NCBI GenBank assembly: GCA_000934665.2
Contig: JYFJ02004079.1
Coordinates: 1-35,091, forward strand
DNA length: 35,091 bases
Source of the DNA: Catajapyx aquilonaris
Lineage: Eukaryota
Direction of reading: 5' to 3'
Shown here: piece after piece, positions 6,003-35,091 of the stretch
Position numbering within the stretch: position 1 is the first letter of the stretch
Layout: each line of letters starts with the position of its first letter
The notes under the pieces: generated by a model
What the model was told of the DNA's origin: nothing
The model's input: only the letters and a program-made list of their open reading frames with translations
Database searches by the model: none
Translations under genes and position numbers: made by a program

Positions 6003-8057
6003 GTGAGTTCCATGAACCAAATAATAAAACAACTCCTTCGACGACGCTCGGTAACTAGTTTAAAAAAATCGTTGGGTCACAAAGTTGCAGGTATTTAAAA
6101 AAAATCAGTGATATGTAACTGCAAGTGTATCAAGGCACTTGCTTCATATATAAAATGCGACCTTCCTTATCTGGACCCATGTCATCTAGTTAAAAAGTGG
6201 GTTTCATAAAAGATGTGTGGGCGTGTATGAATGGGACGTATTCGTGAATGAGCTATATGCATGTGGGTGGGTGGAGGGGGGAGGGGAGGGAGCTGGAGAA
6301 GGGTGGTCTGCTCAACAGGTAGATACTGCCTCATACAGGTCCGAATTACTCATTTACGGATGGTGTGTCAGGTAGTACAGTACAGAGCCAGATTAACATG
6401 TGTTATCCTGGTTTATATGCAACCCAACAGGCAGATCATAACAACCGGGTGGCTTGGTTACCAGGGGCAAAGCTTGGCAATCTGTCCTTATATAATGTGT
6501 CTGGAGATTATTCGATTCTTCGACCATACATTGCAACAATATCTTGGGAAAATGGAAGTTTACGATCATCTACCAGAGTAAGGAGGCCTTCAACTAAAGC
6601 TGCCGCCAGGTTTTATTGTCCGCCATATGTTTGTGAATCATGTGCCTCTAGACAAGCTGTTGCAGCCTTGCGTCCTGTACATTTTTAGGTCCGTATACTA
6701 TCTGCTAATCACTGGTTTCAATAACAAGCATGATTACGCAAGAAGGGAAGTAACAAGCCTTCAAGCTATACTTTGTGACGAAAGTTGGCAACTCGTGCTG
6801 TTGGCCAAACGAACTGGAAATAAAACATGGATGTACGAGAGTAAAGACGGTTGTTTGCTCGCAATCCCCGCAGATATTATACAGACCAGTGGTATACCCA
6901 ACAGACGCACGTACTGTACGTAGCCTTGTAGCTACAATCCAATTAAAACACCCGGACAAAGTCTGGGCAGCACGCCCACTAAATCCCATCCGCATCTCCT
7001 AAAGCTCCGGGCCGTACATACCGAAAAACATCCCTTGTACTTACATCTTGATTACACGAAATGCAACCGCAAGAGCCGAAATGAGCGTAACACTAAGCCC
7101 GAAATCGCCTATGGGACGTCTAGTCCTTTATAGCACCGGAAGTGTGGCCATTGCTAGAACCAATCACAAAATGGTTGGATGTTATGTGCATGAAATACGA
7201 GTATAGAAGTGTCGTAGGCTGTATCCGCGACCTCACAACGAGTTTGACATTTCCAAATGACACCTGCACATACGAGTGATCTTCAGATGTTCATAAATTC
7301 ATACGAAATGTTTTAATCATTACGAAACCATCTTGTGTAAATATGCTGCACTTTTGACGTCATATCCGACTTATTCCTTGAACCTTCTTCTCAATTTGAT
7401 GCTCCCAAATGTACTTTTCGGACTGTGGGGCGCGCAGTAAATCCGGGAGAATTCGCGAGTGAGAGTTTGCGAACGAGAGAAAAAAAAAACGACGAATAAA
7501 AGTTTCTGTGCAGGAAGCGGGAAAGAGTTGGAAGTAATATTTACTGCCCAAGCAGAAAGGCATTCGGGCAAATCAAATGGCCTCTCGCAAAAGTTTTGTT
7601 CCTTGCGACGAGTTTCGCCTTATTTTCTTATTTTTTTTTTGCGGGTGTTATATCCGCAGTGTACCGAAGGTCACGGGTTTTGATGTGAAGTTGTTGAAAG
7701 ATAAACCAGACAGAATTGTTGGGGCTGTTCAGATAACATTATCTTCGTTGCAAAAGCGGGGCAAACCACAAATTGAAGGGGTGGAGGACATGTGTTATTA
7801 TTATTATTATTTAAATTGTCTTTTTCTGTGGGTTAATTTAGATTACGATGTGTGCATGTCCGGATCTACTAGTGTGTACAGTATATCCCACTGGAGCAAG
7901 TAAACTCGTGTGAATGACCCTACTGAAAGTTCCCTCAACGTCGTTTCTTGCCCCACACCGGAGCAAATCTTCTCATCTTGCTTTAGAAGAGCTTTGCTAA
8001 CACCAACCTCTTTTCTCTTCCTTTTTTTTTGGTGGGGAACGAAAAAAAAACACACAG

Positions 8058-8154
8058 GAACTGGAGCTCCGGATAGATACCCAGAAGCAGACCCTTCAGG
8101 CTCGAGACGAGAGCATCAAGAAGCTTCTGGAAATGCTGCAGAGCAAAGGAGTAG
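8058..8154 (+). CDS. brp: brp/ELKS exon ELELRIDTQKQTLQARDESIKKLLEMLQSKGV(G), phase 0-1
   Basis: cacacag|GAA ... GTAG|gtgagt; 97 nt. TQKQTL.ARDESIKKLLEMLQ.KG is a hallmark motif shared by ERC1/ERC2 and Brp. This frame is not in the ORF track. Confidence 0.95.
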
Positions 8155-9336: not shown

Positions 9337-9883
9337 GTGCATTCGTTTTCCTTAAACAAACTACCCCCCTCTAATTATTACTTGTATTTTTTTATTACCA
9401 ATTATTATGGACTTGTCACTTTTTATCATGCTTGCCTGACCAGTGTATTCTTTGCTCACCATAATGGTAGCCAGTCACTATTCTTCTTTTCTTATTTCGT
9501 CTGCAGTTTTTTGTGTTTTCTGACGGTGCAACATATGACATTAGCGCACCAGAGGAAACATGTCACTATGGCGTTCAATTTGACCATTGGTTTTTTGTGC
9601 TCCTGTCCACCCCACCGTCCTTTCCAGTTCCTCAAGTCGGGAATCGTGCCGTTAGCCAATAGGAACCGATAGATACACAGGTTAATATTACTTTCAAAAT
9701 CTAAATCAGAATGAAAGCAACACTTCTTCTGAGCACCAAGTGTAATTTCTTAAGAGCATGTGTCGGTACCTGCTGCGGCACACCCGACAGTGTACTTCCT
9801 ACATATGATTTTTTTTTTTGTTCCTGAAGGAGAGGCTGGGGGGCATCATACTCCTGCTGGAGTGACCCTCGGGTACATTTTGT

Positions 9884-9907
9884 ATGATGATGATGATGAT
9901 GATGATG
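9884..9907. repeat. (ATG)8 microsatellite with degenerate continuation
   Basis: atgatgatgatgatgatgatgatg read directly, about 100 nt upstream of the exon B acceptor. Confidence 0.9.
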
Positions 9908-10006
9908 TGTGATGATGGTGATTTGGGGGAGAGTCACCGCAGAGAAAAGAGGTCTCCTGAAGCTTCTCTGATGGAACGATTCCCCCATGGCCCTTATTAC
10001 TTATAG

Positions 10007-12414: not shown

Positions 12415-15400
12415 GTAAGTCGAAAGGAAATCTGGGTTATACTACTACCTCCGGGGGTATAGGGTCCAGCAGATTTTTTGGGACATGACACCAAAGGGGT
12501 TTTTAGAGGGGAAAGAGTCGAAAAGGACTCGTTCACACGATTGGTTTCGTTTCGGGTCCCTACCAATTTTCAAGGAGCGTGCGAGGAAAGTGTGGAAGAA
12601 AGCCGCCCATGGGGGGAAAAAAAGAGTCTAATCAGAAAACCAAGAGGCCAAAAAATGCAAGCATGATGCCAATGGAAAAACTTTCTCAATCCAATCAGAT
12701 ATTGGAAATTGTTCCAAACACTCATCCTGCTTCCATTCTTTATCCAGCCGGGGCGTGTTTTCCTTCCTTCATTCTGAGGGCCTCTTGCGTGATCGGTGGT
12801 AAATCCAGTCCAAGTGATTAATCTTACTTGAATGCCACTTGTTCTGGTTTTATCATTGGTCACGCAAGCAGGATGGGTTACTTTGGGGACTTTACCAGAA
12901 GGACGAAAGACCGACTCTTGCTTTCTTTGACTCGACGGAGATTTCCTATTGGCAGCTGGCTTTCATTCTGACCCTGTTCTCTCATGGAAGATGTTGCTAA
13001 TAAATATCGCTTGCAAAAGTTAAACTCACTTTTTATGTACAAACTGTGTCGACATTTTTGCAGTATTTCCACTGTAACTATACCCTGAAAATGCAAAGAA
13101 AAAAATGCAAGTATTTAATTTATGGAAAGATTGGCTTGAAGTAAGTAATTGGTTTTAATTATGATGCTTGTGTTGTAATTATTGTATTAATGTGTCATAT
13201 TGGAGGATTTACAAGGGACAATACTGGACTGTAAATATTGTGCAATTGAATATTTTTGAACCAAATTCTTCGAACTTAGGCAAAACGAAAAGCGAGTTTT
13301 ATTTTTGCACCAAACCTTGTTAGACACAACTTTCTCCCCCAAAAAATGGCGGTGGTCCCCCTGCGAAACCAATCCTGCAGCGGATCCTTTTATATAGCCA
13401 CATCGCTTCGTAGCACCCAACCCATTACCTCGGAATCAGACTCAGCTTGTGCACCTTTTGATTTGTTACCCCCCCCTTGGCCCTCTCTTTCGATTGATAA
13501 AAAGAAAAAGAGGAAAGCACCCACACACTATTATACTCACAGCACTTATGGCTTTTTTGTCCTCTTGTTTGTATCGGTTGTGTTGACCCCTCTATTGTCT
13601 AGCTCTCTTCTGTCCTATACTCTTCTTGGCTTTCTTTATAATATTATCTCTCACGTCTGACTAATAGCTGTAGGGAAGAAGTTGTTTTGAAGCTGCACCA
13701 GCGACGATCATAAAATTTGGCCGGAATAATATTGTTTGAAAATGAAAGATGGTCACGTTCAATGTCCACAACCTACGCTCGAAAATTCAGAAGCGTACGC
13801 CGACACCTCCGGATCACTCTTTTACGACGCTTATGGAGTGGAAAATCACTCGTTTTGAATGGGTCACTTTGGTAGTCACAGTTGAGATAATTTTATTCGG
13901 AGTAACAAGCCGCATTTTGAAGAAACGGTTGGCGTGAAATAGGCCCTTGGAATGGTTGACACTTATCGAACGGTTGAAAATGGAATGCACTCGAAATGTT
14001 CCTAATTAAATTCGCCTCTAGTACCAAATCACTTGTATTTCGTTATGAAAGTCATTGGATTATGAAAAAAGGTATATTATGAACACTACTAAGCACTAAC
14101 CATTCTCTTTGTTAAGAAAATGACTTTTGGCAAGTGCTGCTTGAATTTCACTGTAGAGTTGTTCAATTTTTCAGCCACCTGATTGAAGGTCCCTCGATTT
14201 AGAGTGGTTTTCAACTAGAGACAATCAGTGTCACTCTATTTTACAGGGTTGGGTAATCTCGTTTCGAAAGACACGGATCGGCTCCAGGTGTGTCTGGCAA
14301 GGGCGACGCCACTCTTCTGAATTTATAGAGTGTAGCATCTCCTAGAGTCCTAGACTATAAGAAACTATAGCCCCTTGGCTTTTTTGCACGACTATGATCA
14401 TATCTACCAGTGTGATTTTTCCATTTAGGTAGTCCACATTTTTTTGAGTTTGCCTCTTCGCTTCTGTCGGCTTGCTGGTCGTGGCAGGTTGTGGTCACGG
14501 AGAGGCAATTATATTGCCACACATACAAGCTTCAAAAGCTATAGAGTGACACACACACGCAACACGCTCAGACACACCAGACACGCATGGTCAGGGTTTC
14601 TCTCTAGATAGCTGTTGAGTCAGTCACACAAAAGCATATTGGGGGGGGGGGGGGGGNGGGGGGGAATCAGAGCCGGTTTAATTCAAAAATCATGATTATT
14701 TTAGCAATATTATTTATGAGGGATAGATCTTGTGTTGCAACTCAAATATCCGCATTTTTCATTCATTGTTCCTTTCTGTGGGCAGAACCCTAGAAATGTA
14801 TTTTCAAATTGTTATGTTTAATCTACTGTAAATCAAAATACAGTATGTCCAAAAAAATGAAGCAGCTTGTATTTTATAGCGCTGCCAGATTTGTCTTTCA
14901 CCTCGGTCAAAATGGAAGCCAATAGTTGCGAAAGAGAATGATGGGAAGAGCCGAAAGGTCTCTTCTCCCTCGTATTTCCCTCACTCCTGTCTGTTCTCTA
15001 GCTCTTTTTTTTATTATCGAAAATCCATGATGGAGGAGGACAAGCGGGGGTGTAGACAGGGGTGGGAGGGGGGGTGGGAAGGGAGATGAAAAAAAGAGCA
15101 GGTTCCAGCCCCCCCCTCTCCCCAACCCTTCAAAATATCCAGCAGCACCGATGGAGGGGAAGGGGTTTACTGGTGACTTTAGATTTTTTCCGAGCGGTTG
15201 GAAACTGCTGCCGGGAATTGACCATCTAGTTTCAGGAAGAGAAAATAGGATTAGGGATAGACTTCAGCAAAATAGGCAGGTTCAGAAGGGGAGGGTCGGA
15301 ATTTCCACTTTGCAACAAACACATAAGGGTTAACAAACATGACATATCAATCTACACACTGTAATGAAGAGCAGAGCTGTAAATTTGTAGCAGTTAAAGC

Positions 15401-16181
15401 TACGAATTTGCAGCTAAATTCTTCCCACAGCTAATTCACACACGCGTCATACACAACATTTTGTAAAATATTTTCAATTGCAGTGTTATGGACAAGTTAA
15501 TCAGGTAGTGTCATTATCTTACGTTAATTAACACGGCGACGCTACATTTTAAAACCGCTGACAATAAATCCGTCGCTTCTCCCCCCCCCCCCTCCCTTTA
15601 TAGCCTTGTAAAAGAAAATCACATTGGCTTGTATATTACAATGACAGTTGAAACCGGAACGAAACCCATTCTTTCACGAACTTAAATCCTCTTTTGTGAC
15701 TAACCCACACATTTTACCACCTATTTGCAAACGTGTCGTTTTCTTTTCCTCCCCATGACTTTTTCTTTTTCTTTTTTGGTGATTGGATGAATGCAATGAC
15801 TGCATTTTTTTTTTGCTTTTAGTTCTTTTTTTGCATGCCTGGTTGTTCATTTCTTCAATGAAAAAAAGCATGGCCTCTCTCTCTCTGTGAGTCTGCTTTG
15901 TGATATCCCCACTCTCAGAATATACCTAAATGTTGTTATCACCGTCGTTCGATGTGGAGCGTTGTTATACTTTTGGGTGTGCGTGTAATAGTTGTTGTCT
16001 CGATGTCACCATTGTCAGGGAAGCTATTTTCTCGGGATTTTCTCGTCCCTTTCTTCTCTCCCCCCACTTCTCTCAATTATTATCTCTCCGATTCTTTGAC
16101 GAAAATAATAAGGGGGCGAGCTATTATACCTATTAGTCGCAGTTAATGATGTTGATGGAAAAAATCCGCAAATATTTGTTT

Positions 16182-17285: not shown

Positions 17286-17453
17286 ATCGAGGAGCTCCGG
17301 TGCGAGGTGACCAAAAGGGACCAGGAGCTGCTGGCCATGAGCGCCAAGATGAAGACCCTGGAGGAGCAGCACGCAGACTACCAGAGGCACATCGCCGTCC
17401 TCAAGGAGTCCCTCTGCGCCAAGGAGGAACACTACAACATGCTGCAGGCCGAC
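17286..17453 (+). CDS. brp: brp exon IEELRCEVTKRDQELLAMSAKMKTLEEQH...NMLQAD, phase 0-0
   Basis: cttcag|ATC ... GAC|gtgagt; 168 nt. Contains the conserved HIAVLKESLCAKEEHYNMLQ motif of Brp (HIEVLKESLTAKE in ERC). Confidence 0.95.
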
Positions 17454-18707: not shown

Positions 18708-18875
18708 GTGGAAGAGCTGAGGCTTCGGCTGGAAGAGAAGAACCGACTGATAGAGAAGAAGACCCAGACAGCTCTCCAGGCCAACCAGGACCGAAACAGG
18801 CTGAACAACGAGCTCAACGAGATCAGAGATCACATGGACATCAAGGACCGAAAGATCAACGTGCTTCAGCGGAAG
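18708..18875 (+). CDS. brp: brp exon VEELRLRLEEKNRLIEKK...DHMDIKDRKINVLQRK, phase 0-0
   Basis: tttcag|GTG ... AAG|gtgcga; 168 nt; conserved CAST-domain motif. Confidence 0.95.
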
Positions 18876-20064: not shown

Positions 20065-20691
20065 ATCGAGAACCTGGAGGATCTGCTGAAGGAGAAGGAC
20101 AACCAGGTGGACATGGCTCGAGCTCGACTGACCGCGATCCAGGCTCACCACTGCACATCGGAGGGGGCGCTGAGCAGCCTGGAAGAAGCAATAAGCGACA
20201 AAGAGAAGCAGATCCAGCAGCTGAGAGAGCAGCGAGATAGAGCCGAGCAGGAGAAGCACGAAGAGCGAGATCTTCACGAGCGTGAGATTGCAGAGTACAA
20301 GATGAAGATGCATTCGCTGGAGAGCGAAGTGGAGAAGCTCCAGGTGAGGCTGGAGCGAGCCCTGGCCGAGAAGGACAAGCTGGAGGCAAAGCTGGAGAGC
20401 TCGCAGTCGGAACTGGGCAAGTCCAAGGCAGAGCTGGACAAGATGCAAGGGGAGGCTGGGAAGAGCAGCGTGGAGTGGGATGCTGCCAAGCAGAGGCTGA
20501 CCAAACTGGAGCTGGACAACGAGAGGATCAAGGCAGAGAACGAGCGGCTCAGGCACGAGGTCGAGAGGTCACAGACCAGCTACGGACGGTCCACGTTCAG
20601 CACCACGCAGGAGATGGACAGGCTCCAGGAGAAGCTGGACAAGTCGCAAGCGGAGCTTAGGAGAGCCCAGGCAGAGCTCAGGATGAACCAG
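20065..20691 (+). CDS. brp: brp exon IENLEDLLKEKDNQVDMARARL...ELRMNQ, phase 0-0
   Basis: ctatag|ATC ... CAG|gtacaa; 627 nt. Brp-like SEGALSSLEEAISDKEKQ...EERDLHERE and SQSELGKSKAELDK. Confidence 0.95.
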
Positions 20692-21265
20692 GTACAAACG
20701 TGATCTAAATTCGGAAACATGCGGAAAGTATAGCCAGTTAACTGGGAATGAAGGTGACATTTGAAAAGCGATCTGGGCCGTGCAATCGTAGCCTAATTGC
20801 TACATGAAGCAAAACTCAGGTCCGGTGCATTTTACGTCCATGGCGAGACATTAGTCCTAATTGCGATCCCGTCTCTCTGCCGGTTTCTAACCGTTCTGTA
20901 GTCACTCCCAAACTGCTCATGAAGCAAACAGAAGGAAAGGAGTCTCGTGGGACCTGTTAAAATTTGCATGGACACGGTTCCGGAACCGGGTGTGTCTTTA
21001 CATTTTAATGGCCTCGTCCTTTGGGAAACCGCTTAGACCGGCTCACCGACAGTCCCGACGACTCAGACCTTGCCTTGTCACTTCCTTTTTTTATTCCGAC
21101 TCTACAGTGTGCGTGCGTGCAGCCTGTTAGAGCCAGAAGAAAATTCTTTCAACATATGTCTAGCTCAATACCTGCGGCCGAATATATGAATGCTAATGTG
21201 GGAATGGCTAGAAGGGTGTTTTCATTTCGTCCTGAAAGTGTCTTAATGCTTTATTGTAATTCCAG

Positions 21266-22105
21266 GCTGAGTATGAACGGTCGCATGTGGAAGTGGAGCA
21301 GCTCCAGGAGAAGGTGGAGAAATCCCAGGGTGAGATCTACCGGTTGAAGGCCAAGCTGGAGAATGCTCAGTCGGAGAAAGAGAACCTCCAGGACGAGTAC
21401 GACCGAGCCCAGGCTGCGCTGACCAGGCTTCATGGAGAGCGGGACAAGGCTGTTACAGAGCTGGAGAAGCTGAAGGAGGAACTGGAGCGGTCTCAGGCCA
21501 CTCTAGGGAAGGCCCAGCTACAGCAGGAGAAGACACAGAATGCGCTGGACAAAGCCCAGACCGAGCTGGACAAGATGCAGGAGAGGTCGGAGAAGGTACA
21601 GGTCGAAGCCAGGAGGCTCCAGACGGAGAAGGAGAAGCTGGGGTACGATTACGAGAACCTCCAGTCACAGCTGGACAAAGCACAGGGTCAGGCTTCAAGG
21701 CTTCAGAAGGAGAAGGAGACTGCGCTGCTGGAGGTTGACAGGCTGAGGGACAAGTACGAGAAGGTCCAGATGCAGATGGTGAGGGTGCAGAAGGAGAAGG
21801 AGAACTTCCAGACCGAGTCCGAAAAACTGCATGAGAGACTGGAACTGACGCAGGCTCAGTTGGCCAAGGCACAAAGAGATCGAGAGAACACTCAGGCCGA
21901 GTTTGAAGTGCTTAAAGAAAGGTACGAGAAGGGCCAAGCTCAGGTGCAAAAGTTCCAGCTGGAGCGAGACGACGCGCAGACGGAAATAGAGATCCTGAAG
22001 GACAAGCTGGAAAAGGCCCATCTGATTGCCAACAAAGCTCAGGACGACAAGGACGCCGCAGCCAAGGAGTTTGAGAGGATGCTGGAGAAGTACGACCGAT
22101 CCCAG
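21266..22105 (+). CDS. brp: brp coiled-coil exon AEYERSHVEVEQLQEK...MLEKYDRSQ, phase 0-0
   Basis: ttccag|GCT ... CAG|gttggt; 840 nt; E/K/Q/L-rich heptad repeats of the Brp-specific extended coiled coil. Confidence 0.93.
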
Positions 22106-22252
22106 GTTGGTTCAATCTATATGCAAATGTGCCTGGGAGGACACAAATGAGGTTATTCACAACGTATATCTGTGCTGGGAATACAAAACTGTTGCTATTT
22201 TTGTGATGCAATATCTGTTGGCTAACACTGTCTTCTCTTTTGCATTTTCAAG

Positions 22253-22672
22253 AGCGAGGTGTATCGGCTGCAGGGAAAACTGGAGACAGCCCAAGCGGAT
22301 CAGGACCGCCTGCAGATGGAGGCGGAGAAGTCCCAGCTGATGGCAGCCAAGGCCCGCGAGGATCTCCGCAAGGCACAGGAAGACGTCGAGAAGGTTCAGG
22401 AGATGTACGACCGATCATCACTGCAGCTTGGCCGCTGCAAGGAGAGCGAGGAGAAGCTGAAGGAAGAGACGGAGCGAACCGCGGTCGAGACGGAAATGCT
22501 GAGGGAGAGGTACGAGAAGGCCCAGATGGAGCTGAGGAGAGTCCAGAACGAGAAGGAGAAGGTGCAAGCCGAGGTCGAAAAACTGACCTTCGAAGTGGAC
22601 CGTGCCCACACCCAATTCGGCAAGGCGCAGGCAGCGCAGGAGAAATACCAGGAAGAAGTGGCACGCCTGCAG
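22253..22672 (+). CDS. brp: brp coiled-coil exon SEVYRLQGKLE...EEVARLQ, phase 0-0
   Basis: tttcaag|AGC ... CAG|gtaaca; 420 nt, in frame with the flanking exons. Confidence 0.92.
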
Positions 22673-22736
22673 GTAACACGATCTATTCAGTCACATAATT
22701 GACACCACAACCTGACACAAAACATTTCAATTGCAG

Positions 22737-24110
22737 GTTGAGGTTGAGAAGATGTACGACAAGTATGACAAGAGCCAGGCTGAGGTACGGAAGGCGCAGG
22801 CTGATGCAGACAAGGCAAGGCAGGACACCGAGACCATGCAGGTTGAAGTGGAGCGGTATGCGGCCAGAATGGGCAAGTACCAAGACTCGCAGGAGAGGAC
22901 CATTGAAGAGACGGACCGGCTTAAAGTGGACGTTGAGAAGTACAGGGATCGCATGGAGAAGGCACTTGTTGAGCTGGAGAAAGCACGAGAAGCCCGTGAG
23001 AAGGCTGAGAACGACCTGGTGCGGCTCAGGTCAGACGTTGAACGGGCGGAGACGGCCAAAGGAAAACATGCTGAGAAGTGGATCGCGGAAGCCGAAATAC
23101 TTCGCGAGCGGTTAGAGACGACCCAGAATGAACTCCAGCGCTCCAGAACAGCCAACACAACCCTGGATGATGAATTGGGTAGGCTTCGAGTTGAGCTTGA
23201 ACGCAGCCATTCGCAGGCCGAGAAATCAGCCAGCGTGCAGGAGAGACATTCGGGTGAAATTGAGCGAATGCATATCGAGGTGGAAAAACAGCGCGATAAG
23301 GCCGAGAGGGCACAGGCTGAACTCCAGCGACTCCAGTCCCGGCTGGACACCTTGGAGTCTGAAAACCGTCGCCTCAGAAATGAGGTTCAGTCATCCAGTA
23401 CTGCAGTGGAACGGTTTTCAGCAACTCATGAGAAGACCAGGACTGAGGCTGAGCGGACCACTATGGAGCTGGAGAAGACCAGGGATCGCCTGGAGCGAAG
23501 CCTCCAGGATCTCCAGCAAGCGCAGTCTGCACGGGACAAAGCTGAGAGTGATGCAGCAAAAGCCAATCGTGACCTGGAAAGAGCTCAGCAACATCTCGCC
23601 AAGTACCAGGAGACATCGGAGACATCTAAGTCTGAATTCGAGCGCATGTCCAATGAAATGGAGAGGATGCAGGCTAAGGTGGAGAAGAGCCAGATGGAGT
23701 TAAGACGAGGCACAGAAGAGCGCACCAAACAGGAGGCTGAAATCCAGCAGTTGAAGTCAGATCTCGATAGAGCCAGAAATGAAGGACAGCAGAGGACCAA
23801 GGACGAGTCGTCCAAACTGCTGACGCAGCTGGAGGCCGTCCAGGCAGACCTGATGAAGGCAACTAAAGAAAGAGACAAGCTGGGAAGTGCTCTGGAGAAG
23901 AGGGAGAAGGTAGGGGAGAAGGTGGAAAGACAAATAACCAAGCTGGAGGGCGAGGTGAAGCAACTGACCACAGACAGGGACCAGCTGGTCATCCAACTGG
24001 AGAAGTCGCAGGAAATGCTCATGAACTTCCAGCAGGAGCTGCAGCAGTCAGAGGCAGACCTGGAGGCAGCGAGGGTGGAGAACAAGAGGCTCAAGACAGA
24101 GCAAGTGAAG
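22737..24110 (+). CDS. brp: brp large coiled-coil exon VEVEKMYDKYDK...DRDQLVIQLEKSQEMLMNFQQEL...KTEQVK, phase 0-0
   Basis: ttgcag|GTT ... AAG|gtaata; 1374 nt. QLVIQLEKSQEMLMNFQ matches a Brp motif as recalled. Confidence 0.93.
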
Positions 24111-24171
24111 GTAATAATGGTGCACTGTCAGTCTATATTGTTTGTGCTAATACCGACCGAAATATTCACAG

Positions 24172-24663
24172 GTGACAAAAGACGTGGAGCAAGGTGTGAA
24201 GGAGATGTTGGCGAGCAAAGACAAGGAGATCCAGCGGCTTCAGCAGCAACTACAATCTTACGAGAAGGACTCACTGCAGTTACAGCAGGAGAGAAACAAA
24301 GAGCGTCAAAGAGCAGACAAGATGGAGAAGGAGGTGGCTGCAGCTGCAAAGCAGACGCAGGAAAAGGGCAAGGTGGTTGAGTCCGAACTTCAGAATGCAA
24401 AGAAGCTGGCCGATGCAGAGAAGGCGAGGGCAGATGGCGCCGAGAAGGCTGTCCAGGAGCTGCTTCGGCAGACCCAGGAGTTGCAGAAGCAGAGCCAGCA
24501 GCAGAAGCAGCAGTTGCAGCAGGCCAAGGAATCAGCGCCAGACACCCAGAGGATGTCCAAGGACCTCAAGAAAGCACACGAGGAGCTTAAGAATGCTGCT
24601 GTCGAGCGGGAGAGGTTCCAGTCTCAGCTGGAGCTTCTTGTCCAGGAGCTGCAGCAGAAGCAG
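24172..24663 (+). CDS. brp: brp exon VTKDVEQGVKEML...ERERFQSQLELLVQELQQKQ, phase 0-0
   Basis: tcacag|GTG ... CAG|gttctt; 492 nt; Gln-rich coiled coil. Confidence 0.9.
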
Positions 24664-25042
24664 GTTCTTCCAGACAAAAAAAAATAGAAATCACTTGGTG
24701 TTGTTGGCAACTCAATGTCTCACATGCACTGTTTTCCCTCCTTTGGTTTAAGGAAGCACTTAGTTCTACATGTCTGCAACTCAATTATGCCCATAGTAAT
24801 GTGAAGATTTTTGTTGGAGTCATCCAAACATCACTTTTGAATATTAGACCTGCACTATTTATAAATTGTCACCTAATAGAAAAGTTATATTGAACTGCAT
24901 GATTTTAATGTTCCTTTTTTTTGACATATTTGTTACTGGATTTCTTTAGGTGGAATAATTCCTACATGGGAGACTGCACAACGCAGGAATTTCGTGCATT
25001 AGGTCCCCCATCTGAATTGACCCGAGTGTGTCCCATCCCTAG

Positions 25043-25578
25043 GTTGAAGTTCAGGAGGCGAACCAGCGTTTGGCAAATGGTGGTCCCCAGGCGGCGGAGG
25101 CAGCCCAGTTGAAGAAGCAGGTGGATGAGCAGAGGAGGCAACTGGAGGAGCAAAGGAGACAGCTGGAGGAGCAGAGAAAGCAGGCAGAGGAGATGAGAAG
25201 AAAGGCGGAGGAGAGAGGGAAAGGAGCGGACGTGGCCAGGAAAGCAGCGGACGACAGAGGAAAGCAGCTGGAGAAGGCGGAGGCCGAGCTGAAGAGGAGG
25301 AAGGACAGGATAGACCAGCTGGAGCAGCAGCTGCATAAGGCGCAGGCGGAGGCCTCCAAGCCAGGGGCCGCTGCTCCTGCAGGAGGGGCGCAGGCCGCCC
25401 AGCTCCAGAAGGCCCTGGCCGAGAAGGAGAAGGCCCTGGACCTGCAGAAGAAGGAGGTGGAGAAGATGAAGGATGAGGGGCAGCGCTCGCAGGGAGAGCT
25501 GGAGAGGCTGCTGCAGCTGGTGCAGATGAGCCAGGAGGAGCAGAACACCAAGGACAGGCAGATACAGGACCTCCAGCA
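25043..25578 (+). CDS. brp: brp exon VEVQEANQRL...ELERLLQLVQMSQEEQNTKDRQIQDLQ(Q), phase 0-2
   Basis: ccctag|GTT ... CA|gtgagt; 536 nt. ERLLQLVQMSQEEQN is the Brp near-C-terminal motif as recalled. Confidence 0.92.
25127..25210 (+). repeat. Coding 21-nt tandem repeat x4 (EQRRQLE EQRRQLE EQRKQAE EMRRKAE)
   Basis: GAGCAGAGGAGGCAACTGGAG, GAGCAAAGGAGACAGCTGGAG, GAGCAGAGAAAGCAGGCAGAG, GAGATGAGAAGAAAGGCGGAG read directly. Confidence 0.8.
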
Positions 25579-25715
25579 GTGAGTCCACTCGCCTGATCCT
25601 GCATCTCAGATATTTTGTGTCAATGTTTATCATTGATGCAAGTGGACATAATGCAACACTGTGTTAATATTGACTTCTAATGTTTTGGTAATGTGGTGAT
25701 TTTTTCTTTCTGCAG

Positions 25716-25785
25716 GGCACTGAGGAACGAAAAAGCCAAAGTGAAGAGTCTTCAAACTCAAAGCGCTCAAATGGCTGCTGACCAG
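25716..25785 (+). CDS. brp: brp exon (Q)ALRNEKAKVKSLQTQSAQMAADQ, phase 2-0
   Basis: tttctttctgcag|G ... CAG|gtacgc; 70 nt completes the phase-2 codon. Resembles Brp QQALKNAQAKLK as recalled. Confidence 0.88.
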
Positions 25786-25900
25786 GTACGCAACAAGTAA
25801 CAATGAGAGAAGAGCTGCATGATAAATATTACGAAACTAACACTGCATTTTCTTCTTCCCTTCTTAATTTTTGCGTTATTACCACTTTGATTTTAAATAG

Positions 25901-25939
25901 TCTTCAGGCCCTGGTGGCTTCCTCAAAAGTCTGTTTTAA
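25901..25939 (+). CDS. brp: Brp-type terminal coding exon SSGPGGFLKSLF*
   Basis: ttttaaatag|TCT TCA GGC CCT GGT GGC TTC CTC AAA AGT CTG TTT TAA in phase 0. Matches the Drosophila Brp C-terminus ...GPAGFLKSFF as recalled. Confidence 0.87.
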   Translation, partial: SSGPGGFLKSLF

Positions 25940-26191
25940 GTCTGCTGAGAGAAACCCAAGCACATGCACACACACAAAGCGGACAAAATGTGCTCACTTG
26001 TGTGTTATAGTCCAAAGTAACATTTTTTTTCTGGTGATTCAGGGAGTACTAACCTTGTGAGAAGTAACTGAATGTGCTAGTGAGCGACAAAACCGAGTGC
26101 CTAAGACTGAGGTTTTGCATTTAGTTTGACAGTTGTTTGGTTCTGTTGTTTTGAGTTTTTAGTTCGCCAATATTTTTGGTGGCTTGTGTAG

Positions 26192-26550
26192 AAAAGTGAT
26201 GTGGAGGAGCTGCTGAAGAAGGATGAGGTTGACGAGCAGAGTCTGGACGAACTGGAAGAGCTGATCCTGGTTGTGAAGCAGAAGAACGACAGGATAGAAT
26301 CACTGGAGCAAGCCTTGAGGGACAGCCTTGTCATCACATCCCAGCGAGACAGAGAAGAGCAGGTCAAACTTCAACAGGCAAGCCAGCAAGTGACGAAGCT
26401 AGAGCAACGCCTGCAGTCGTTGCAGTCTGCACATGCACTCAGGTGTAACTTGTGCAAACCCATTGCAACTAGGATGAGCGTGTGCCAGGCCAGACTAGAG
26501 ACTCTCCTGACTGAGAGAAGGACCCATCTGCAGGAGCTGTTCGACATGAA
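26192..26550 (+). CDS. brp: ELKS/ERC-type alternative C-terminal exon 1: KSDVEELL...NDRIESLEQALRDSLVIT...ERRTHLQELFDM(K), phase 0-2
   Basis: tgtgtag|AAA ... AA|gtcagt; 359 nt. Resembles ERC1 DRIEELEEALRESVQIT...ERRKHLEEVLEMK as recalled. Confidence 0.85.
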
Positions 26551-26692
26551 GTCAGTACCGAATATTGCTAATTTGCAACAACTTATTGATGTAAAGTAGC
26601 TTGGAATTAGATGGTTGTCATTTTTTGACTCATAAATAATTTTGGCATATGACACAATAGGATGAGCTGTGATATAGCGAACACTTTTGCAG

Positions 26693-26840
26693 GCATGAAG
26701 CGCTTACAGCTGCCATCAGTGAAAAAGATGCTCAGCTTGCTCTTCTTGAAGTCTCTGGGATAAGAACCGCTCGTCAAGCAGAAGACGTTGATAGGCTCCA
26801 GTCTGACAAAAAGAGATTGGTTGCTCGGATAAAAGAAGAG
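26693..26840 (+). CDS. brp: ELKS/ERC-type C-terminal exon 2: (K)HEALTAAISEKDAQLALLEVSG...KKRLVARIKEE, phase 2-0
   Basis: ttttgcag|G ... GAG|gtaagc; 148 nt. Matches the ERC motif KQEALLAAISEKDANIALLEL as recalled. Not in the ORF track. Confidence 0.88.
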
Positions 26841-27034
26841 GTAAGCAAACAAGTTCCAACTTGAAAGCCAAGGGAAAGTGGCTTGGGTCATTTTGCAGAC
26901 GTATATTAGGCAATTTAGATTTGCCTAGGTCATTTCAGTTGTAAAATTTAAACAAATACTGTGCAGCTTTTTTTTATGGATTTGCATTTACACAGGGTAA
27001 TAGCTCTAATTAAACGTAATGAATTTTTGTCCAG

Positions 27035-27212
27035 AACGAGAAGAGAGTGAGGCTGCTGAAAGAATGCTCCATTCCAACTGACAAAGAGTGCAACGGAGGA
27101 AGCTGGGCACTTCCTTTCTTGAAAGAGGCTGTGGATGAAACTGCAGACTGGGAAGAAGTCGACGTGAGTCTTCCAGAGCTGAGCAGCTTCAACTTGTCTT
27201 CTGGATCATATG
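27035..27212 (+). CDS. brp: ELKS/ERC-type C-terminal exon 3: NEKRVRLLKECS...; alternative donors after 27163 (gtgagt) or 27212 (gtcagc)
   Basis: tgtccag|AAC in phase 0; NEKRVRLL aligns with ERC QNRMKLM as recalled. The 3' boundary is uncertain. Confidence 0.7.
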
Positions 27213-27317
27213 GTCAGCATGGATTCTACTCGCCCAAAAATAAATCTAGCATAAATTTCATAATGAAATATTTAAATCTCTCTCCCACAATTTTAATGAA
27301 GATTTTCAATATTACAG

Positions 27318-27349
27318 GTGTGAATGACCAGTCTTCGGATGTGACATGA
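27318..27349 (+). CDS. brp: Probable last coding exon of the ELKS-type isoform: (G)VNDQSSDVT* (or V* at 27323 if the 27163 donor is used)
   Basis: attacag|GT acceptor; in frame with the phase-1 donor at 27212. Confidence 0.5.
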
Positions 27350-30300
27350 TGAGTGATTCGCCAGAAGTGAGTGTTTCGGTTCAGGCATATGTTATATATT
27401 TTTTATAACCTCGACACAAAATGACACTCGGATTTGAAAGGTCTCAAATGAACAAAGCAACAAGCACAAGGATTTTGGTGTGAGGAAATACTCTCATATT
27501 GCAAAAACCTACAAAAAAAAAATTAGGGAGAGAAATCTCTGCAGCTTTCGAAAAAAAACTCGGAGCAATATATCGATGTGTAATAATCGCCATATTTGTG
27601 ATGAAGGACGTCAAACAAAAATAGGGAACATAACAATTGGCGATGGTGAGTCACGTCTTCCCCGCCTAAGAAAAACAACAGTGTGACAATATGGATGAGG
27701 AAGAAAACGAAAAGAAAAGAACCTCAAAAAAAAAAGGTGTGTGCGGATGTATGTTACGTGTCGTGATATGGGGGGGAAAGCAAAACCCAATAATTTTTTT
27801 GCTTTGTTTTTCCTGCAACCCACCTTACGACTGTTTTCCTGCATTTTTGAAATAAGAAGTGATTCACTTCAAGACTGGGGGTGTAAAGAAATGCAACAAA
27901 AAAGGAGAAAAAAAAATATTATGTGGATGAAGAGACTCTTGTTGAGTAGTCCTAGTGTCAACCAAACTGCCACAGTTGTGCCATTACAGTCTATAAAATG
28001 TGTAGCCTGTTGTGGGAGCCATGGTGGAGCTACGTCATTTTGTTTCCAGTAGCACAATACAAAACCTTGATTTTCCCAAAGCAAGTGGACATTACACCCT
28101 ATTTTAACCAAAAATCAAATCATACAGACAAAAGCAGCCAAACTTGCAATCCCTTGAATTATACATGAGCAGGCTTATGTAATTTAAGGGTTTTTTTTTG
28201 TTTTGTTTCACATGATGGAATTAACATTTTGTCGTGTCTGTCTTACAAGAGTATTTTTTATTGAAAGCAAGGTTGTGTGCAAAAGTGATAAACACTAGAG
28301 TGCATTCCTGCCTTTGACACTACTTGATAAAAATTGCCCTCTGGCCAATGAGATTATTAAGCTGTTGCTGTGTACGTAAATAAAGTTCATGTACTAGCCA
28401 TAACTAGCAAAGTGCAGAGATAAACGAATCAATCAATATTTTCATATCAGTCACTTTTTTTTTGATGGGGCCATCACATTTCGGTGTAATGTACACTTGC
28501 AACAATTTCCTTATTTGAACACTATTCCTACCTTACAGTAGAAAAGTCATTGCAGCAAGTCTTTAGACATAGGTGCCATGTATTTAAAACAAAAAAAGAA
28601 GAAGGGAAAAAATAGGGTGTTGAATTTACAAATGATAAATTTTGTGAATGCAATACGTGTCTTCTCAACATCAGTTTTCTGTGAAGATTTGTGATGGAGC
28701 TTGTTCCAGCTGCCTTTCTCGAAACAACCTTTTCGTTTTCAACACCCAGCCTGAGCATTTATTTATTTATTCAGCATATTTGTTGAGGTAAATATACATG
28801 ATATGTGTGCAAGTGATTGTGACGACCACAAAAAAAACAATTGGAACAAGCTCTGTGACCAACTGACAACAATAAGAAGAATGCTTTATGAGGAGCATTA
28901 TTTTTCATATTGTTTGAGTACATCTGTTGGAGATATTAATTGAAAATACCATGCATATTGTGAGTATATGTGTGTAAGAAAATAAGCTGGTTAAGGCCCA
29001 TCCCTCCCACCCACCACTGCCCCCCACCCCTAAAAGGTTTTTCCAGAAAAAAGAGAGAAGTTCTTCACTGTGCAAAGTTGATTCCTATTCCAACTAGTCT
29101 TAGACGAAACCCCGATCATTTCCCCACTTTTTCCGAGCAGCAGCGCAAAAAAAGAGAAAAAAACCCTTAGGTGGACACTATCTTATGAGTCACTAATCGT
29201 GTTCGTTATTAGGGAATTTTTTTTAAAGAGAGAGAAAATAAATAATCTTTTCTTCCCCCCCTACCGTGGGGCATTTGCCTTAATGTTTCGAATGGTGTTC
29301 AGAGTAAAGATGAAGGGAAGGGGGAAAGATTTAGTGTTTATCACTCCCGAAGTAGTTCTTTTCGCTCTCAAGGAAGTTTTGCCTGCAAAGTGAGAGGATT
29401 ATTTTTTAATAAAAATAATCTCTTCTTGCAGAATATTATAGTGGGTAGGGGCATTTGCATGTGACCCAAAGCACCTTAAAATTCTGTGATAACTGCCATC
29501 TCACTCCAAGCAAATTTTCCTCGTGGACAGTGCAAAGTCTGTTGTTAACAAAATGTGATTGAACTTTGATAGGTCATGCAAGAGTGTGTACAACATGTTG
29601 ACAGTATTCGCCTCGACTTCGCCATTTGTTGAGCTGGAAAATGCACAAATTTCCAAACTTCCCACTTTGATCAGACCTTTCATGGCATTGAGAAGAAAAA
29701 AGAAAAAAAAATGAAAAGGAAGGGGTGATAGCTGCAACGTGTATAGCAAGTTTTTTGGATTTTTCTATGCACATAACACTAATACACATACAGACACACA
29801 AACAAAACCCTTACAACCCTAACTATAGTATTGGAGGCAGAAGCTCTTTTTTTCCCAAACGATTAAAAAAGGAAAATTGAGACAAAGTTGTCACATCGGA
29901 GGAACTTAATCTTATTGATCTGAGCTCACTCTTTCTCTCAGCACTTCTCCATCTCAGCTTATATAGTATATTTCTTGCTCAGCATTTCTTTCCGTGGGGA
30001 TAAAATATATTTAAAAACTATTGTGTATGGATGTGATGATCATATCAAGTTGTCTGTCTCCCATTCGCAAAAAAAAAAAGAAAAGAAAAAAAGAAAGTAA
30101 TGTGATGATGTGCCCATTTATTGAGACTTGACAGAATTAATTCCCCTTCCCGAATTGGGTGTACGCTTAAATAGCACCAATTATTGTATTCAAATGCATA
30201 CTTTAAAAACAAGTAAAACTACCAAAAAACATAATGGCCATGTCTCTCGATTACACGGCAGTTCCTAGGGTTAGAGTTAGATGACGTAGTTTTTTGCGAA

Positions 30301-31106: not shown

Positions 31107-31351
31107 GTGAGTCACAGTCAGATTTCACTGCATGAATTAAAAGGGTGAAAACCAAATTTATCTTATACAAATGAAACTGATTGGGTGTTCAAAGAAATAA
31201 AATGTCAAATAATAGGCACAACATAGACTTTGCATTTTTAAAATATTTTAATTACAACTATTTAGATTAAATATTTCAAGATAGCTGCATGAATAAATTC
31301 AGGTAGCCCTGAGACAATGAACCCACATTTTATTATTTGAATTCATTTCAG

Positions 31352-31483
31352 ATAGTGCTGCAGGAGCCATACATGGCTCCAGCAGAAGCTGCTCATGCAG
31401 CTGCAGAGGTTTTTCCTGAATCAAAAAGAGCAGGCATAAAAATTTTGGATGTTGCTTGTGGAACTGGGGTCGTCGGAGTGCAG
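31352..31483 (+). CDS. METTL27-like methyltransferase exon 2 (IVLQEPY...KILDVACGTGVVGVQ)
   Basis: tttcag|ATA ... CAG|gtaacc; 132 nt; SAM-binding motif I ILDVACGTG. Confidence 0.9.
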
Positions 31484-31614
31484 GTAACCAGTGATCAATC
31501 AAACAATAAGAGTAGTGTTGTCACGTCACAGTCAATCTCAATCGTTATTACGGGCTTAACTGAATCTCATTACGAATTTAATGGTGGCTTGATAACGATC
31601 ATTATGCACTTCAG

Positions 31615-31873
31615 TTGCATGAGCAAGGCTTTCGACACATTGATGGAGTGGATCCCAACTGGAAGATGGTGTCTGAATTGTTGCCCAAACGTGTCTATCG
31701 TCGTGTCACTTTGGCTGCTCTGGGAGATGGTGACAGCAGCAACAGTGTACCGGAGGAATCTGACAAAGAGATCCCCGAGGAGTCCTACGATGCTGTCATT
31801 CTCGCTGGTGGATTTTCCCCTGGCCATGTGCCTTACACGGCCATTTACGACATGCTCAGGGCATGCAAGAAAG
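31615..31873 (+). CDS. METTL27-like methyltransferase exon 3 (LHEQGFRHIDGVDP...YDAVILAGGFSPGHVP...LRACKK(G)); 3' end at 31873 (GA donor) or 31879 (weak GT donor)
   Basis: cttcag|TTG; motifs GF..IDGVD, YDAV and GF.PGHVP. The donor position is ambiguous. Confidence 0.85.
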
Positions 31874-31952
31874 GAATGTGTACTACTCTCTGGTCACACA
31901 TTGGTTTGATGATAATAATTAACTGTCTCAATTAATAGTCTCTGTATTTCAG

Positions 31953-32131
31953 GTGGTGTAATAGTGATAGTCATGCGTCCCGTTGTGCTGATGGATCAAG
32001 ATTATCTGCCACTTGGTCCTCTCATGGAAATCCTGGAAAAAGAAGGAAAATGGAAGCTAGAAAGAAAGAAAGAGTTTAAAAATTATTGGCGTTCCAATCC
32101 TGGCTTAGCATTCACTTTCCGCAAGTGCTAA
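31953..32131 (+). CDS. METTL27-like methyltransferase exon 4 ((G)GVIVIVMR...LEKEGKWKL...AFTFRKC*)
   Basis: tttcag|GT phase 1; open to TAA at 32129-32131. Completes the KxGG motif and the terminal beta strands, giving a protein of about 236 aa. Confidence 0.85.
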
Positions 32132-34399
32132 GAATAATTTATCAGCTCTTCATCTGATCAAATGTATCAGTCATTTATTAACCTCTACGTTGGCAATTAA
32201 TCAAACAAAAATAGCGCTGAAGCTTTGCGTGGCAGTGTTGTGTGTAATCATTTGTTATATCTTCTGTTATAAGATACAACGTGTATCTTAATGTGTGCAT
32301 GGTCTTGACTAAGTAAATAACTTACGCTAAAAATCTGAACAAGTCCGATTTACTATATAGTGAATGACATTTAGTTGGCCTATAACTTGCATAAGATCCC
32401 GAAAATGTTTAGGAGAGAACCTGTGATTTTATTATATGCAGCTATTAAAGAGCCTTTATAAAATGCATCATTAAACACTGATGTCTTAGTATTGGCCTCA
32501 ATTTGTGCCAAATCGCTTCATGTTTAAAACTCGCTCCATGTCTTTGGTGGTGTTAGCAAAATGTTTGTGTGTAAAAGTTAATCAAGGTCGCTTTGGGCCA
32601 CCTCAGCTGACATTGAATATAGCTGGAACAGTGGCCTCGTATCGAACATTTGATAAGCACCCCAAATTGCCATACTTGCGCAATACATAAAGATTGGAAA
32701 CAGAAACAAGCTCTTAGCACCCACACGTGCGGAGGCCATTCGATTTCATTACTCATTAATGATAATTATTTGGTACAACACTAATGCCCAAGAACTTGAG
32801 AATTTGCCTAGCACACTCTGAGCTCTTGATGATAGAGAAAGACTCACTGAATAACTGAAATTACCATTCCAGGATATTATTTTGTTAAATACTTTTGTTT
32901 ACTCGATTAACAAAGGAAACTCTCACATTTGCCTTTCATCATTATGTACGATTTATTCGCGAAAAATTGAAACAAGCATCAATGTCAGGTGTAGTGATCA
33001 ATAAAATATTTGGTTTCATCCACCACTGCTATAAAACTGGAATAACATTTTAATAATAGGCTTGCATGGAAGCAAATGAGGGAAAATCTCCAATTATGAA
33101 CAGGTATTCACAATGGATAATAACTTACAATATATTTGGGGGGGGGGGGGGAGGTTTACTCCTTAATTTGAATTTATTAACCGGCCGTCAGGGTAAATCA
33201 AGGAGAAAATGTCCCAAAAATTTCGATTATGAATTGCTTGCATAATCGAACACGTCCCGTAATTTGCGCGAAATTAATTGCATTAACTAATTTAAGAAGT
33301 GTGTGTAGTTATCAAACTGAAAAATGGGAAATGTAGCATCTTATTTACCCAGATTTTCGCAGATTAATATCTGAAATTGAGAACTATCTGTTACAGCTTC
33401 CTCTAAATTGAATCGACCATATACGTAATAATGATCAGGACACTTTCCTGACAGAGAATTATTCAGTTTCCCAAGCAAAATATATGAATGAAAAATGTAT
33501 CATGTGTGCATTATCAAGGGCATTTTCCTACACTGTGTTTCACAATGATGCCGACAAACTCCTGGGGTGAATATTCCTGCTGGCCATATAGGATCAAGGT
33601 ATAAGGATATGTCAGTTACTCAGATTATGATCTGCAAATAAAAGGTCTAAAATATCTCACAGTGCCATATCTATTTTGTCATTTTACTTTTATGTATCAA
33701 TATGGAATAATTTAAATGTAAGACACAGACTCTGATTAATTCGTCAGGACTTCCGGTATATTATGGTGTGGTACACAATCGACAACTGAGGACAGAATTT
33801 TCAAGCATTCCCGCCATTGCCGCAATATCGTCTTAAATTATTTTTTTCATGCTATAGGATAAGTTAGTGTTTCCTGCGTACGTGTTGCATAAACATTAAA
33901 ATCAGGCATGGTCCTATATAGCAATCGGATTGTTACACGTGGCGCAGTTCCTTAGGAAATTCCGCAATTCTAAATACACTGAACAGTGCCAATTACACTA
34001 CCTATTGATCTGAGCCATTAGAGCTTTCAACATAGCGATTCCTGAGTCGATACCAAGTGTGCCTCTCTACTACGATGTGGTGTATCAGAATCTTGATCTT
34101 ATCATTCTGCCCGTTCGTAATTAAATACGCTTGTGGAGAAATACCACATTGCGCATATTCCAAACACTAGTGTGGCTTCATTTTTCATACTCTACATTTT
34201 GTATTGCGGCTTGAGTAGTTGAATACGTCGCTAGGAACTTGGATCCCTATAACATTTCAGTGTGTCGGTCATTTAAGACTCACTACACATTACGTGCAGT
34301 ACCATGGTGACCTTCCAAGTGTGAAGTTTGTGCATTTCAAGAATCTACAGTGTAGGGCCTACCTTTGTTTATAATTAGTGGATCTGCAGTAGCACGGAA

Positions 34400-35091
34400 A
34401 TGGTCGTCATGACTGTCAGGAGCATGTTGTTCTTTTCCGTGGTCTTTAATGCGCTGGTCTTGACACCGGCACACTTCCCTCCTTTCGTCAATGAAAATAG
34501 CACAAGAATTGAGGTGCTTGTTTCCAGTCTGGTGCAAGACATTCACTCTGAGAAGTTACCCGAATGTACTCTTTTGCTAGCCCACGACTTTGTGTCTGCT
34601 CCGAAGACGATTCAAACGATCCTGTCTAATGCGAACGAACAATATCGCCCGACACTGTCTCTGTCCCCTCCCGAGTCCTTCTCTGTCCCTGATGACGCAT
34701 CGCATCGAGATTATTGGGACATTAGCTCCAAGGAGTGGACCGGTCCTTGTCTGGTGCAGCTGCTCACCCCCAGGACATCCGGACTGGTCAACCGGATGAG
34801 CATCTTCGTCTCCACCAGGGTCAAGGTCAGGTCAGACGATGACCACGTCGTCATATGGACCAGGGAAGACCCGGACAAGGCCATTTCACCAAAGGAGGAC
34901 AGGACCAACAGCATGCTGGGGATGAGGTGGAAGGTGGCCATCAAGCCTTCTCCTGATGGAGGGTCACTGGAGCTGGCCACCATTTGCTTCTTTCGCAACG
35001 AGGGAAACCACTCCAAGGTCACTCTGGGACACTATCCGGGACTGGGGGTAGGGGACTTGTTTCCAGATAACACGAAGCATTTCCATGGCAG
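34400..35091 (+). CDS. Probable divergent ionotropic receptor (IR, iGluR-derived chemoreceptor), N-terminal part; runs off the window end
   Basis: First ATG after an in-frame TAG (34376); 230 uninterrupted codons. Hydrophobic signal-like start MVVMTVRSMLFFSVVFNALVL, N-glycosylation sequons NST and NHS. Ends ...ICFF...DLFPDNTKHFHG, resembling the LFPDKxxNFHG motif that precedes the S1 lobe in arthropod IRs. Confidence 0.65.
   Translation, partial: MVVMTVRSMLFFSVVFNALVLTPAHFPPFVNENSTRIEVLVSSLVQDIHSEKLPECTLLLAHDFVSAPKTIQTILSNANEQYRPTLSLSPPESFSVPDDASHRDYWDISSKEWTGPCLVQLLTPRTSGLVNRMSIFVSTRVKVRSDDDHVVIWTREDPDKAISPKEDRTNSMLGMRWKVAIKPSPDGGSLELATICFFRNEGNHSKVTLGHYPGLGVGDLFPDNTKHFHG

Follow-up and report, generated by a model that had tools for sequence, protein, structure and literature searches.

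Bruchpilot (Brp) and ELKS are central scaffolds of the active zone. According to excerpts of two sources (PMC5830537; PMC3263340; here and below, cited papers are drawn on in excerpt), Brp is usually described as ELKS-like only in its N-terminal half, and the view that Brp lacks the ELKS C-terminal interaction region has limited comparisons between fly and vertebrate synapses (PMC5830537). The C-terminal end of Drosophila Brp is printed as ...DAGPAGFLKSFF in PMC6400551, where its last 17 residues are reported to bind vesicles and to act together with Complexin; the review PMC5830537 covers the brp-nude truncation. In ELKS/CAST/ERC proteins, the C-terminal GIWA is a ligand of the RIM PDZ domain. 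The families are thus already known, as are alternative C-termini of vertebrate ELKS, and databases hold the pieces discussed here as unlinked models. We analyzed a 35,091-nt stretch of the Catajapyx aquilonaris genome (GCA_000934665.2, contig JYFJ02004079.1, positions 1 to 35,091 of the forward strand; the window), whose + strand carries most of one animal ELKS/Bruchpilot gene. The 3' part of this gene probably retains two alternative coding ends, one of Brp type and one of ELKS/ERC type. We found no paper on an ELKS-type end retained behind a brp stop exon, or on its conservation.

The branch point for the two C-termini is the last common exon (25716..25785, + strand), which is flanked by the acceptor ctgcag and the donor gtacgc, ends in phase 0, and is placed by the sequence and by the RNA joints 25578>25716 and 25785>25901. 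Upstream lies a further exon common to both ends (25043..25578, +), which closes with ...ERLLQLVQMSQEEQNTKDRQIQDLQ plus CA, is covered by RNA contig rec1 and aligns with ERC1; it is 46% identical to residues 68-227 of a termite (Cryptotermes) model, P0004. The CA that closes this exon joins exon 25716-25785 to encode Q-ALRNEKAKVKSLQTQSAQMAADQ. From 25785, two continuations stay in frame, one at the TAG acceptor 25901 and the other at the TAG acceptor 26192, 291 nt apart. An earlier first-pass annotation had proposed exactly this phase-0 fork, and both the sequence and the frames bear it out.

The RNA basis is a single public run (X1) of unrecorded kind and unknown tissue, kept as contigs, which is RNA-like in being spliced; joint coordinates are given after stated cut shifts, and such contigs are unable to show the absence of a rare form. 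The contigs match the window at 99% or more and contain seven joints, all GT..AG: 17453>18708, 18875>25043, 24110>24172, 25578>25716, 25785>25901, 26840>27035 and 27212>27318. The 897-nt contig rec1 joins 17388-17453, 18708-18875, 25043-25578, 25716-25785 and 25901 to ~25959, and proves the Brp-type end in RNA. It represents a short form, in which the joint 18875>25043 skips 6,167 nt (~1,400 coiled-coil residues, among them those of the ELKS-like exon 20065-20700), and which ends in the Brp tip.

The Brp-type coding end (25901..25939, +) follows its TAG acceptor with 39 nt encoding SSGPGGFLKSLF plus TAA, and is identified by the sequence, the rec1 joint, the tip printed in PMC6400551 and a matching exon in an independent metagenome contig (L003, see below). 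The exon continues as untranslated region (UTR) to at least ~25959, 59 nt beyond the joint in rec1. Compared with the Drosophila tip GPAGFLKSFF, the window's GPGGFLKSLF-stop is identical at 8 of the last 10 residues, and a six-frame scan of the window found the Brp-tip pattern once, against no occurrence in 300 shuffles. None of the 273 proteins fetched carried a Brp-type tip at its end, and the tip comparison is based on PMC6400551 and L003. By homology, the tip encoded here would be expected to tether vesicles.

The alternative, ELKS-type tail consists of four exons on the + strand, all in frame with 25785. Exon 1 (26192..26550) has 119 codons and a split codon AA/G, carries the motifs IESLEQALRDS and AHALRCNLCKP, and aligns with arthropod tails and frog ERC1. 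Exon 2 (26693..26840), encoding EALTAAISEKDAQLALLEV..., is the homologue of the Rab6-binding domain, identified by Pfam Cast, PDB 8ij9_C and the joint 26840>27035. Exon 3 (27035..27212; NEKRVRLL...) is bounded by the joints 26840>27035 and 27212>27318 in contig rec5, the second of which removes an in-frame intron of 105 nt. Exon 4 (27318..28100) is coding to the TGA at 27347-27349 (...SSDVT) and continues as 3' UTR to ~28100 by contigs rec5 and rec6. By chance, the 238 tail codons would remain open with a probability of ~5e-7, and exon 1 alone with one of 7e-4. Exon 1 aligns over its full length with the relatives P0001, P0004 and P0008 at 50%, 51% and 45% identity, respectively, and its residues 6-119 are 33% identical to frog ERC1 786-903; BLASTP against a 4-sequence database matched residues 27-119 to frog ERC1 808-903. 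Taken alone, exon 1 gave no Pfam match and no PDB match, and a word-index search with it was empty although relatives align, which is a limitation of the word-index search. Exon 26694-26840 matches Pfam Cast (PF10174) at positions 712-758 of 766 with 35.8 bits (cut-off 29.1) and PDB 8ij9_C with an E-value of 1.5e-6.

Structure 8IJ9 shows Rab6B in complex with the ELKS1 Rab6-binding domain (residues 849-922), whose contact residues are named in PMC10267580. With ELKS1 numbering assigned by matching residue letters, nine Rab6-contact residues fall within the alignment; the window has seven of them unchanged (I867, S868, E869, D871, A875, L876 and K905), and the other two are altered (L864 to T and L879 to V). 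Charge reversal at ELKS1 D871 or K905 abolished Rab6 binding (PMC10267580); both residues are among those kept. Judged by sequence, the second tail genuinely represents an ELKS/ERC C-terminus, Rab6-binding hairpin included, and homology leads us to expect that it binds Rab6. The first-pass annotation had called the first tail Brp-type, the second ERC-type, and Brp itself ELKS-like at its N-terminus only; the first agrees with the Drosophila end in the excerpt of PMC6400551, the second with Pfam Cast 712-758, 8ij9_C and frog ERC1 808-953, and the third with the wording of PMC5830537 and PMC3263340. Beyond its first residues, tail exon 3 gave no family match, with no Pfam match for 27035-27163. 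The vertebrate ERC1 C-terminus is GIWA (frog P0009), whereas I, V, L or M followed by WA-stop is found in none of the three + frames of the window, and the tail ends in ...SSDVT. An internal GGSWA lies in exon 27035-27212, ~20 residues past the Rab6-binding-domain homology, and is either a vestige or chance. The four minus-strand open reading frames (ORFs) beneath the tail match no Pfam family, and an Rfam scan of 24000-29000 found no family. Because an in-frame TAG directly precedes exon 26192, no ATG occurs until ~residue 95, and ELKS homology begins with the first residues, the exon needs an upstream coding exon ending in phase 0.

Relatives support this layout. A search with a 49-aa exon returned seven proteins, all with Pfam Cast, the named ones being from Timema, Cryptotermes and Gryllus. 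In the 566-aa Cryptotermes model P0004, the distal Brp exons (...ERLLQLVQMSQEEQNTKEKMIRDLQ, EALKNAQAKLRSQQTANAQLEEQ) lead without interruption to the ELKS tail, and at the junction between common exon and tail, ...AQLEEQ is followed by RRREEVEVQDKS.... P0008 (997 aa), from a 3,622-nt Logan contig and presumably mRNA-derived, leads from an ELKS N-terminus (FWSPELKKER...) via the common exons to the ELKS tail; its KINVLQRK followed by LDLHEANQKL (residues 496/497) equals the window's RNA joint 18875>25043, but with the ELKS tail. The termite tail region recovers vertebrate ERC1 at ~1e-25 in a search of 5.8 billion proteins, and the termite sequence P0002 keeps the window's exon boundary ...KEE before gt. 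Scanning metagenome contigs with P0004 yielded seven loci, one of which, the termite-like L003, spans the region and is 66-94% identical to the termite protein. It holds, all in phase 0, a common exon ALKNAQAKL...EEQRRREE (8047-8128), the exon AGPAGFLKSFF-stop directly after tag (9625-9660), and the tail exon VEVQDKSVEAN... after tag (from 10001), with an AHALRCSTCRP exon near 12600. L003 and the window thus share exon order, phases and the TAG at both alternative acceptors, and the tail of the L003 lineage is only ~50% identical to that of the window. The two-ended architecture is real and conserved. We found nothing in favor of the idea that both tails are open frames arisen by chance or products of faulty assembly, and its probability is practically negligible given the RNA contigs matching at 99% or more with correct joints, the significant Pfam and PDB matches, the absence of the Brp tip from all 300 shuffles, and the independent contig L003 with the same order.

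Over its full length, on both sides of the fork, the gene is colinear with ERC1. Seven window exons match frog ERC1 (P0009) in order (BLASTP, 4-sequence database): 8019-8111 matches ERC1 286-308, 17265-17453 matches 440-496, 18708-18875 matches 497-552, 20065-20700 matches 553-641, 25043-25576 matches 666-756, 26192-26548 matches 808-903, and 26694-26840 matches 906-953. Single exons score 48.9, 47.4, 52.4, 31.5 and 35.8 bits against Pfam Cast (cut-off 29.1) and cover, respectively, profile stretches 290-343, 347-403, 403-583, 468-606 and 712-758 of 766. The ELKS-homologous exon 18708..18875 (+) closes with KINVLQRK in phase 0 and is supported by Cast 347-403, frog ERC1 497-552 and the RNA joints 17453>18708 and 18875>25043; its donor at 18875 has as partner either 20065 or, with skipping, 25043. 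Acceptor 20065 opens a long coiled-coil block (20065..24663, +), whose end at 24663 is set by frame and a GT rather than by RNA. The first exon of this block (20065-~20700) is ELKS-like, being the one that matches Cast 403-583, and the pieces at 21260-24660 are Brp-only. These pieces (287+158+465+163 = 1,073 aa) gave no match at E<=1e-3 to any of four ELKS proteins, have only sub-threshold, generic coiled-coil matches in Pfam, and are expressed (contigs rec2 and rec3, joint 24110>24172). An Atlas search with a Brp-only exon returned generic coiled-coil clusters only, with low recognition.

Since no ELKS match occurs in 21260-24660, the Brp-only coiled coil constitutes an insertion within the protein, between ERC1 ~641 and 666. 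Exon 25043-25576, upstream of the Brp tip, still resembles ELKS, its residues 70-178 matching ERC1 666-756 (E 8e-8 in the 4-sequence database) and the exon weakly matching Cast 468-606; the Brp-only part is therefore internal and not C-terminal. To judge from sequence comparison, the usual wording, in which Brp's C-terminal part is unrelated to ELKS, differs from the locus seen here. The first-pass annotation had further proposed that Brp arose by inserting a coiled coil and a new terminal exon into an ELKS gene. The layout of this proposal is supported by the ERC1 colinearity, the Brp-only block and L003; for its evolutionary order, an ELKS gene first and the inserted coiled coil and early stop exon later, we can only infer.

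As a plausible mechanism, the spliceosome would choose after 25785 between the two TAG acceptors. Use of 25901 would add 12 residues and a stop, giving the Bruchpilot-type tip GP.GFLKS.F, and use of 26192 would add ~229 residues from four exons, giving the ELKS/ERC C-terminal coiled coil with its Rab6-binding hairpin but lacking the PDZ ligand GIWA. The four acceptors involved in alternative joining (20065, 25043, 25901 and 26192) are all TAG, and the other acceptors checked (18708, 24172, 25716, 26693, 27035 and 27318) are all CAG. The spacer that separates the ELKS-tail acceptor from the Brp stop (25940..26191, +), which was scanned for poly(A) hexamers and is covered from 26070 by contig rec4, has an in-frame TAG at 26189-26191 and contains none of the 15 hexamers tested; the first canonical hexamers lie inside the tail introns, and a further one lies at 28379. 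With no hexamer in the spacer and unspliced RNA across 26192, the Brp-type mRNA probably reads on, with the tail exons as a spliced 3' UTR, and the switch between a T-bar-like tethering scaffold and an ELKS-like one, which the first-pass annotation had put forward, would on this reading be a choice of 3' splice site and not of poly(A) site.

Several observations weigh against the reading of two alternative coding ends. The joint 25785>26192, whose use in Catajapyx aquilonaris we infer, is found in none of the X1 contigs; of the two junctions that the first-pass annotation had suggested looking for in RNA, it is the one not seen, and 25785>25901 is the one seen. The only RNA over the second acceptor is rec4 (456 nt), which runs unbroken from 26070 to 26525, unspliced across 26192, at a depth of 4.8 compared with 4.1-4.5 on the brp exons, a mean depth that leaves scant room for a second abundant form sharing 26192-26525. 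Judging from bin means, nothing besides the listed contigs covers 25500-26827; the gaps in cover at 25960-26069 and 26526-26789 (the latter partly exonic) reflect thin assembly and carry no weight. Over 26790-28100, depth rises to 18-32, 4-7 times that of the brp exons, which could be due to 3' bias, to priming within A-runs, or to additional transcripts initiated downstream of 26525. Within this range, rec5 has a depth of 18.1 and reaches 27734, and rec6 covers 27727-28100. As a side observation, two X1 contigs diverge from the window at 27527 and 27723 beside A-runs of the 3' UTR, with loose ends of 255 and 153 letters whose sequences are absent from the window. Among the relatives, P0004 is a gene prediction and P0008 comes from an unassigned other species. 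L003 has an AATAAA at 9836-9841, between the two ends; a mechanism acting by splice site only is therefore not general, and the window and L003 lineages may differ in how the Brp-type mRNA ends. Stand-alone tail genes, finally, are annotated in at least 10 arthropods, in RefSeq and other annotations.

The unspliced RNA across 26192, lying downstream of the Brp stop at a depth similar to that of the brp exons, together with a spacer free of poly(A) hexamers, is what would be seen if the tail exons went untranslated as mere 3' UTR in the Brp-type mRNA and represented a decaying remnant of the old ELKS end. We regard this as rather improbable, since a relic would hardly keep 238 codons open over four exons (chance ~5e-7) with their GT..AG introns removed, 50-77% identity to arthropod tails and 33-52% to frog ERC1, and the Rab6-contact residues. 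The exon boundary ...KEE before gt, being the same in termite P0002, points the same way, as a relic free of selection would look otherwise.

The stand-alone annotations bear on another explanation, in which 26192-27349 belongs to a separate downstream unit with its own promoter or first exon, encoding a tail-only Rab6-binding protein, and the frame fit is a historical leftover. HMMER with P0004 over 1.84 billion representatives gave 450 matches at E<=1e-3, and many tail-only proteins are among the 150 matches listed; 30 of these 150 were looked up by name, so that missing names from Diptera or Coleoptera carry no weight. Tail-only proteins of ~220-620 aa are annotated as genes of their own in 10 named arthropod species, namely Orussus (partial), Polistes, Fopius, Cataglyphis and Aphidius, as well as Zerene ('ERC protein 2-like'), Cloeon, Pycnogonum ('ERC1 (predicted)'), Hyalella and Trinorchestia ('Active zone protein ELKS'), and further short tail models exist in Timema and Gryllus. 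The hymenopteran tail-only forms have their own repeated coiled-coil N-terminus. These annotations, together with the raised depth over 26790-28100 (18-32 versus 4-5 on the brp exons) and the missing 25785>26192 joint, speak for a separate unit. We nevertheless consider it unlikely: the exon stands directly after an in-frame TAG, has ~95 codons without an ATG and is homologous from its first residues; the unbroken cover of 26070-26525 leaves no first exon spliced in from there; the N-termini of several tail-only models resemble junk or are partial (Fopius, Hyalella, Orussus 'partial'); and in P0008 and P0004 the tail is connected to ELKS/Brp exons. The tail-only models may be real independent units or distal ends left unjoined across the Brp stop. 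Methionine starts of Logan/JGI tail-only ORFs were considered as a start codon of the tail's own and rejected, as they fall at varying internal positions, one of them replacing a valine of the termite sequence; these starts are without weight because prokaryote-style gene calling is indicated.

Taken together, the data partly support the interpretation given in the first-pass annotation, and the two-ended 3' part of one ELKS/Bruchpilot gene is the explanation we favor. One slip concerned the tail itself: the stop at 27349 stands, whereas the implied earlier end of the third tail exon does not, the joint 27212>27318 placing that end at 27212. More tentatively, and with more reserve than for the locus alone, we suggest that the ancestral arthropod ELKS gene may have been dual-output and may still be so in many lineages, with two weak TAG acceptors selecting either a vesicle-tethering Bruchpilot or a Rab6-capturing ELKS scaffold and block skipping multiplying the forms, and that Bruchpilot might represent an insertion plus an early stop exon in a complete ELKS gene. 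If this dual-output reading is true, the textbook statement that Brp lacks the ELKS C-terminus covers one isoform or one derived lineage. A locus encoding both ends, shared by Catajapyx aquilonaris and a termite-like insect, offers a tangible route, in terms of gene structure, from ELKS to Brp and predicts an unstudied, ELKS-type and probably Rab6-binding arthropod isoform.

Elsewhere in the window, the downstream neighbor at 31313-32131 (+) has a methyltransferase-like motif, ILDVACGTG, with a sub-threshold match to Pfam MTS (18.5 bits, cut-off 23), and a 237-codon frame at 34379-35089 (+), open to the window end, matches no Pfam family. Simple repeats, which were passed over when the RNA contigs were placed, lie at ~9876-9920 and 15750-15785, the former yielding poly-His/Asp/Met frames, and single N letters at ~14650 and ~18440 appear as X in ORF translations.

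Among the described systems, Drosophila Brp resembles the window's gene in its ELKS-like N-terminal exons, its long coiled coil without ELKS match and the tip GP.GFLKS.F. It differs in that the excerpted review (PMC5830537) gives it an 'unrelated C-terminal portion' without the ELKS C-terminal interaction sequences, whereas the window has a complete ELKS-type tail 253 nt past the Brp stop that fits the frame of the last common exon. Vertebrate ELKS1/ERC1 and ELKS2/ERC2 (CAST) are colinear with the window's gene from the N-terminal exons to ERC1 ~953 of 995 and produce alternative C-terminal ends from one gene, as A and B variants (PMC5830537, in excerpt), which the window's gene probably does too. 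Compared with ERC1, the window's gene lacks GIWA and has ~1,070 extra coiled-coil residues between ERC1 641 and 666, and its alternative end is the 12-residue Brp tip instead of the ERC1 'A' tail with an FIP-RBD domain. C. elegans ELKS-1 is alike in that this invertebrate has a single ELKS gene, whose C-terminal coiled coil is conserved (PMC5830537); the worm protein differs in ending with GIWA (720 ERRQ-GIWA 836) and, as far as the excerpted description in the same review goes, has neither a Brp-type tip nor the insert. The closest counterparts of the tail are the short genes annotated in insects, amphipods and a sea spider as 'ELKS/Rab6-interacting/CAST family member 1-like' or 'ERC protein 2-like', which share the module ..EELEEALRES.., AHALRC..CRP and ..ISEKDAHLALLE.. 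at 40-77% identity to the window's tail exons. Those genes stand alone at 220-700 aa, whereas the module follows the Brp stop exon immediately and in frame both in the window and in L003, and many such 'ELKS-like' short arthropod genes may be the unjoined distal end of brp.

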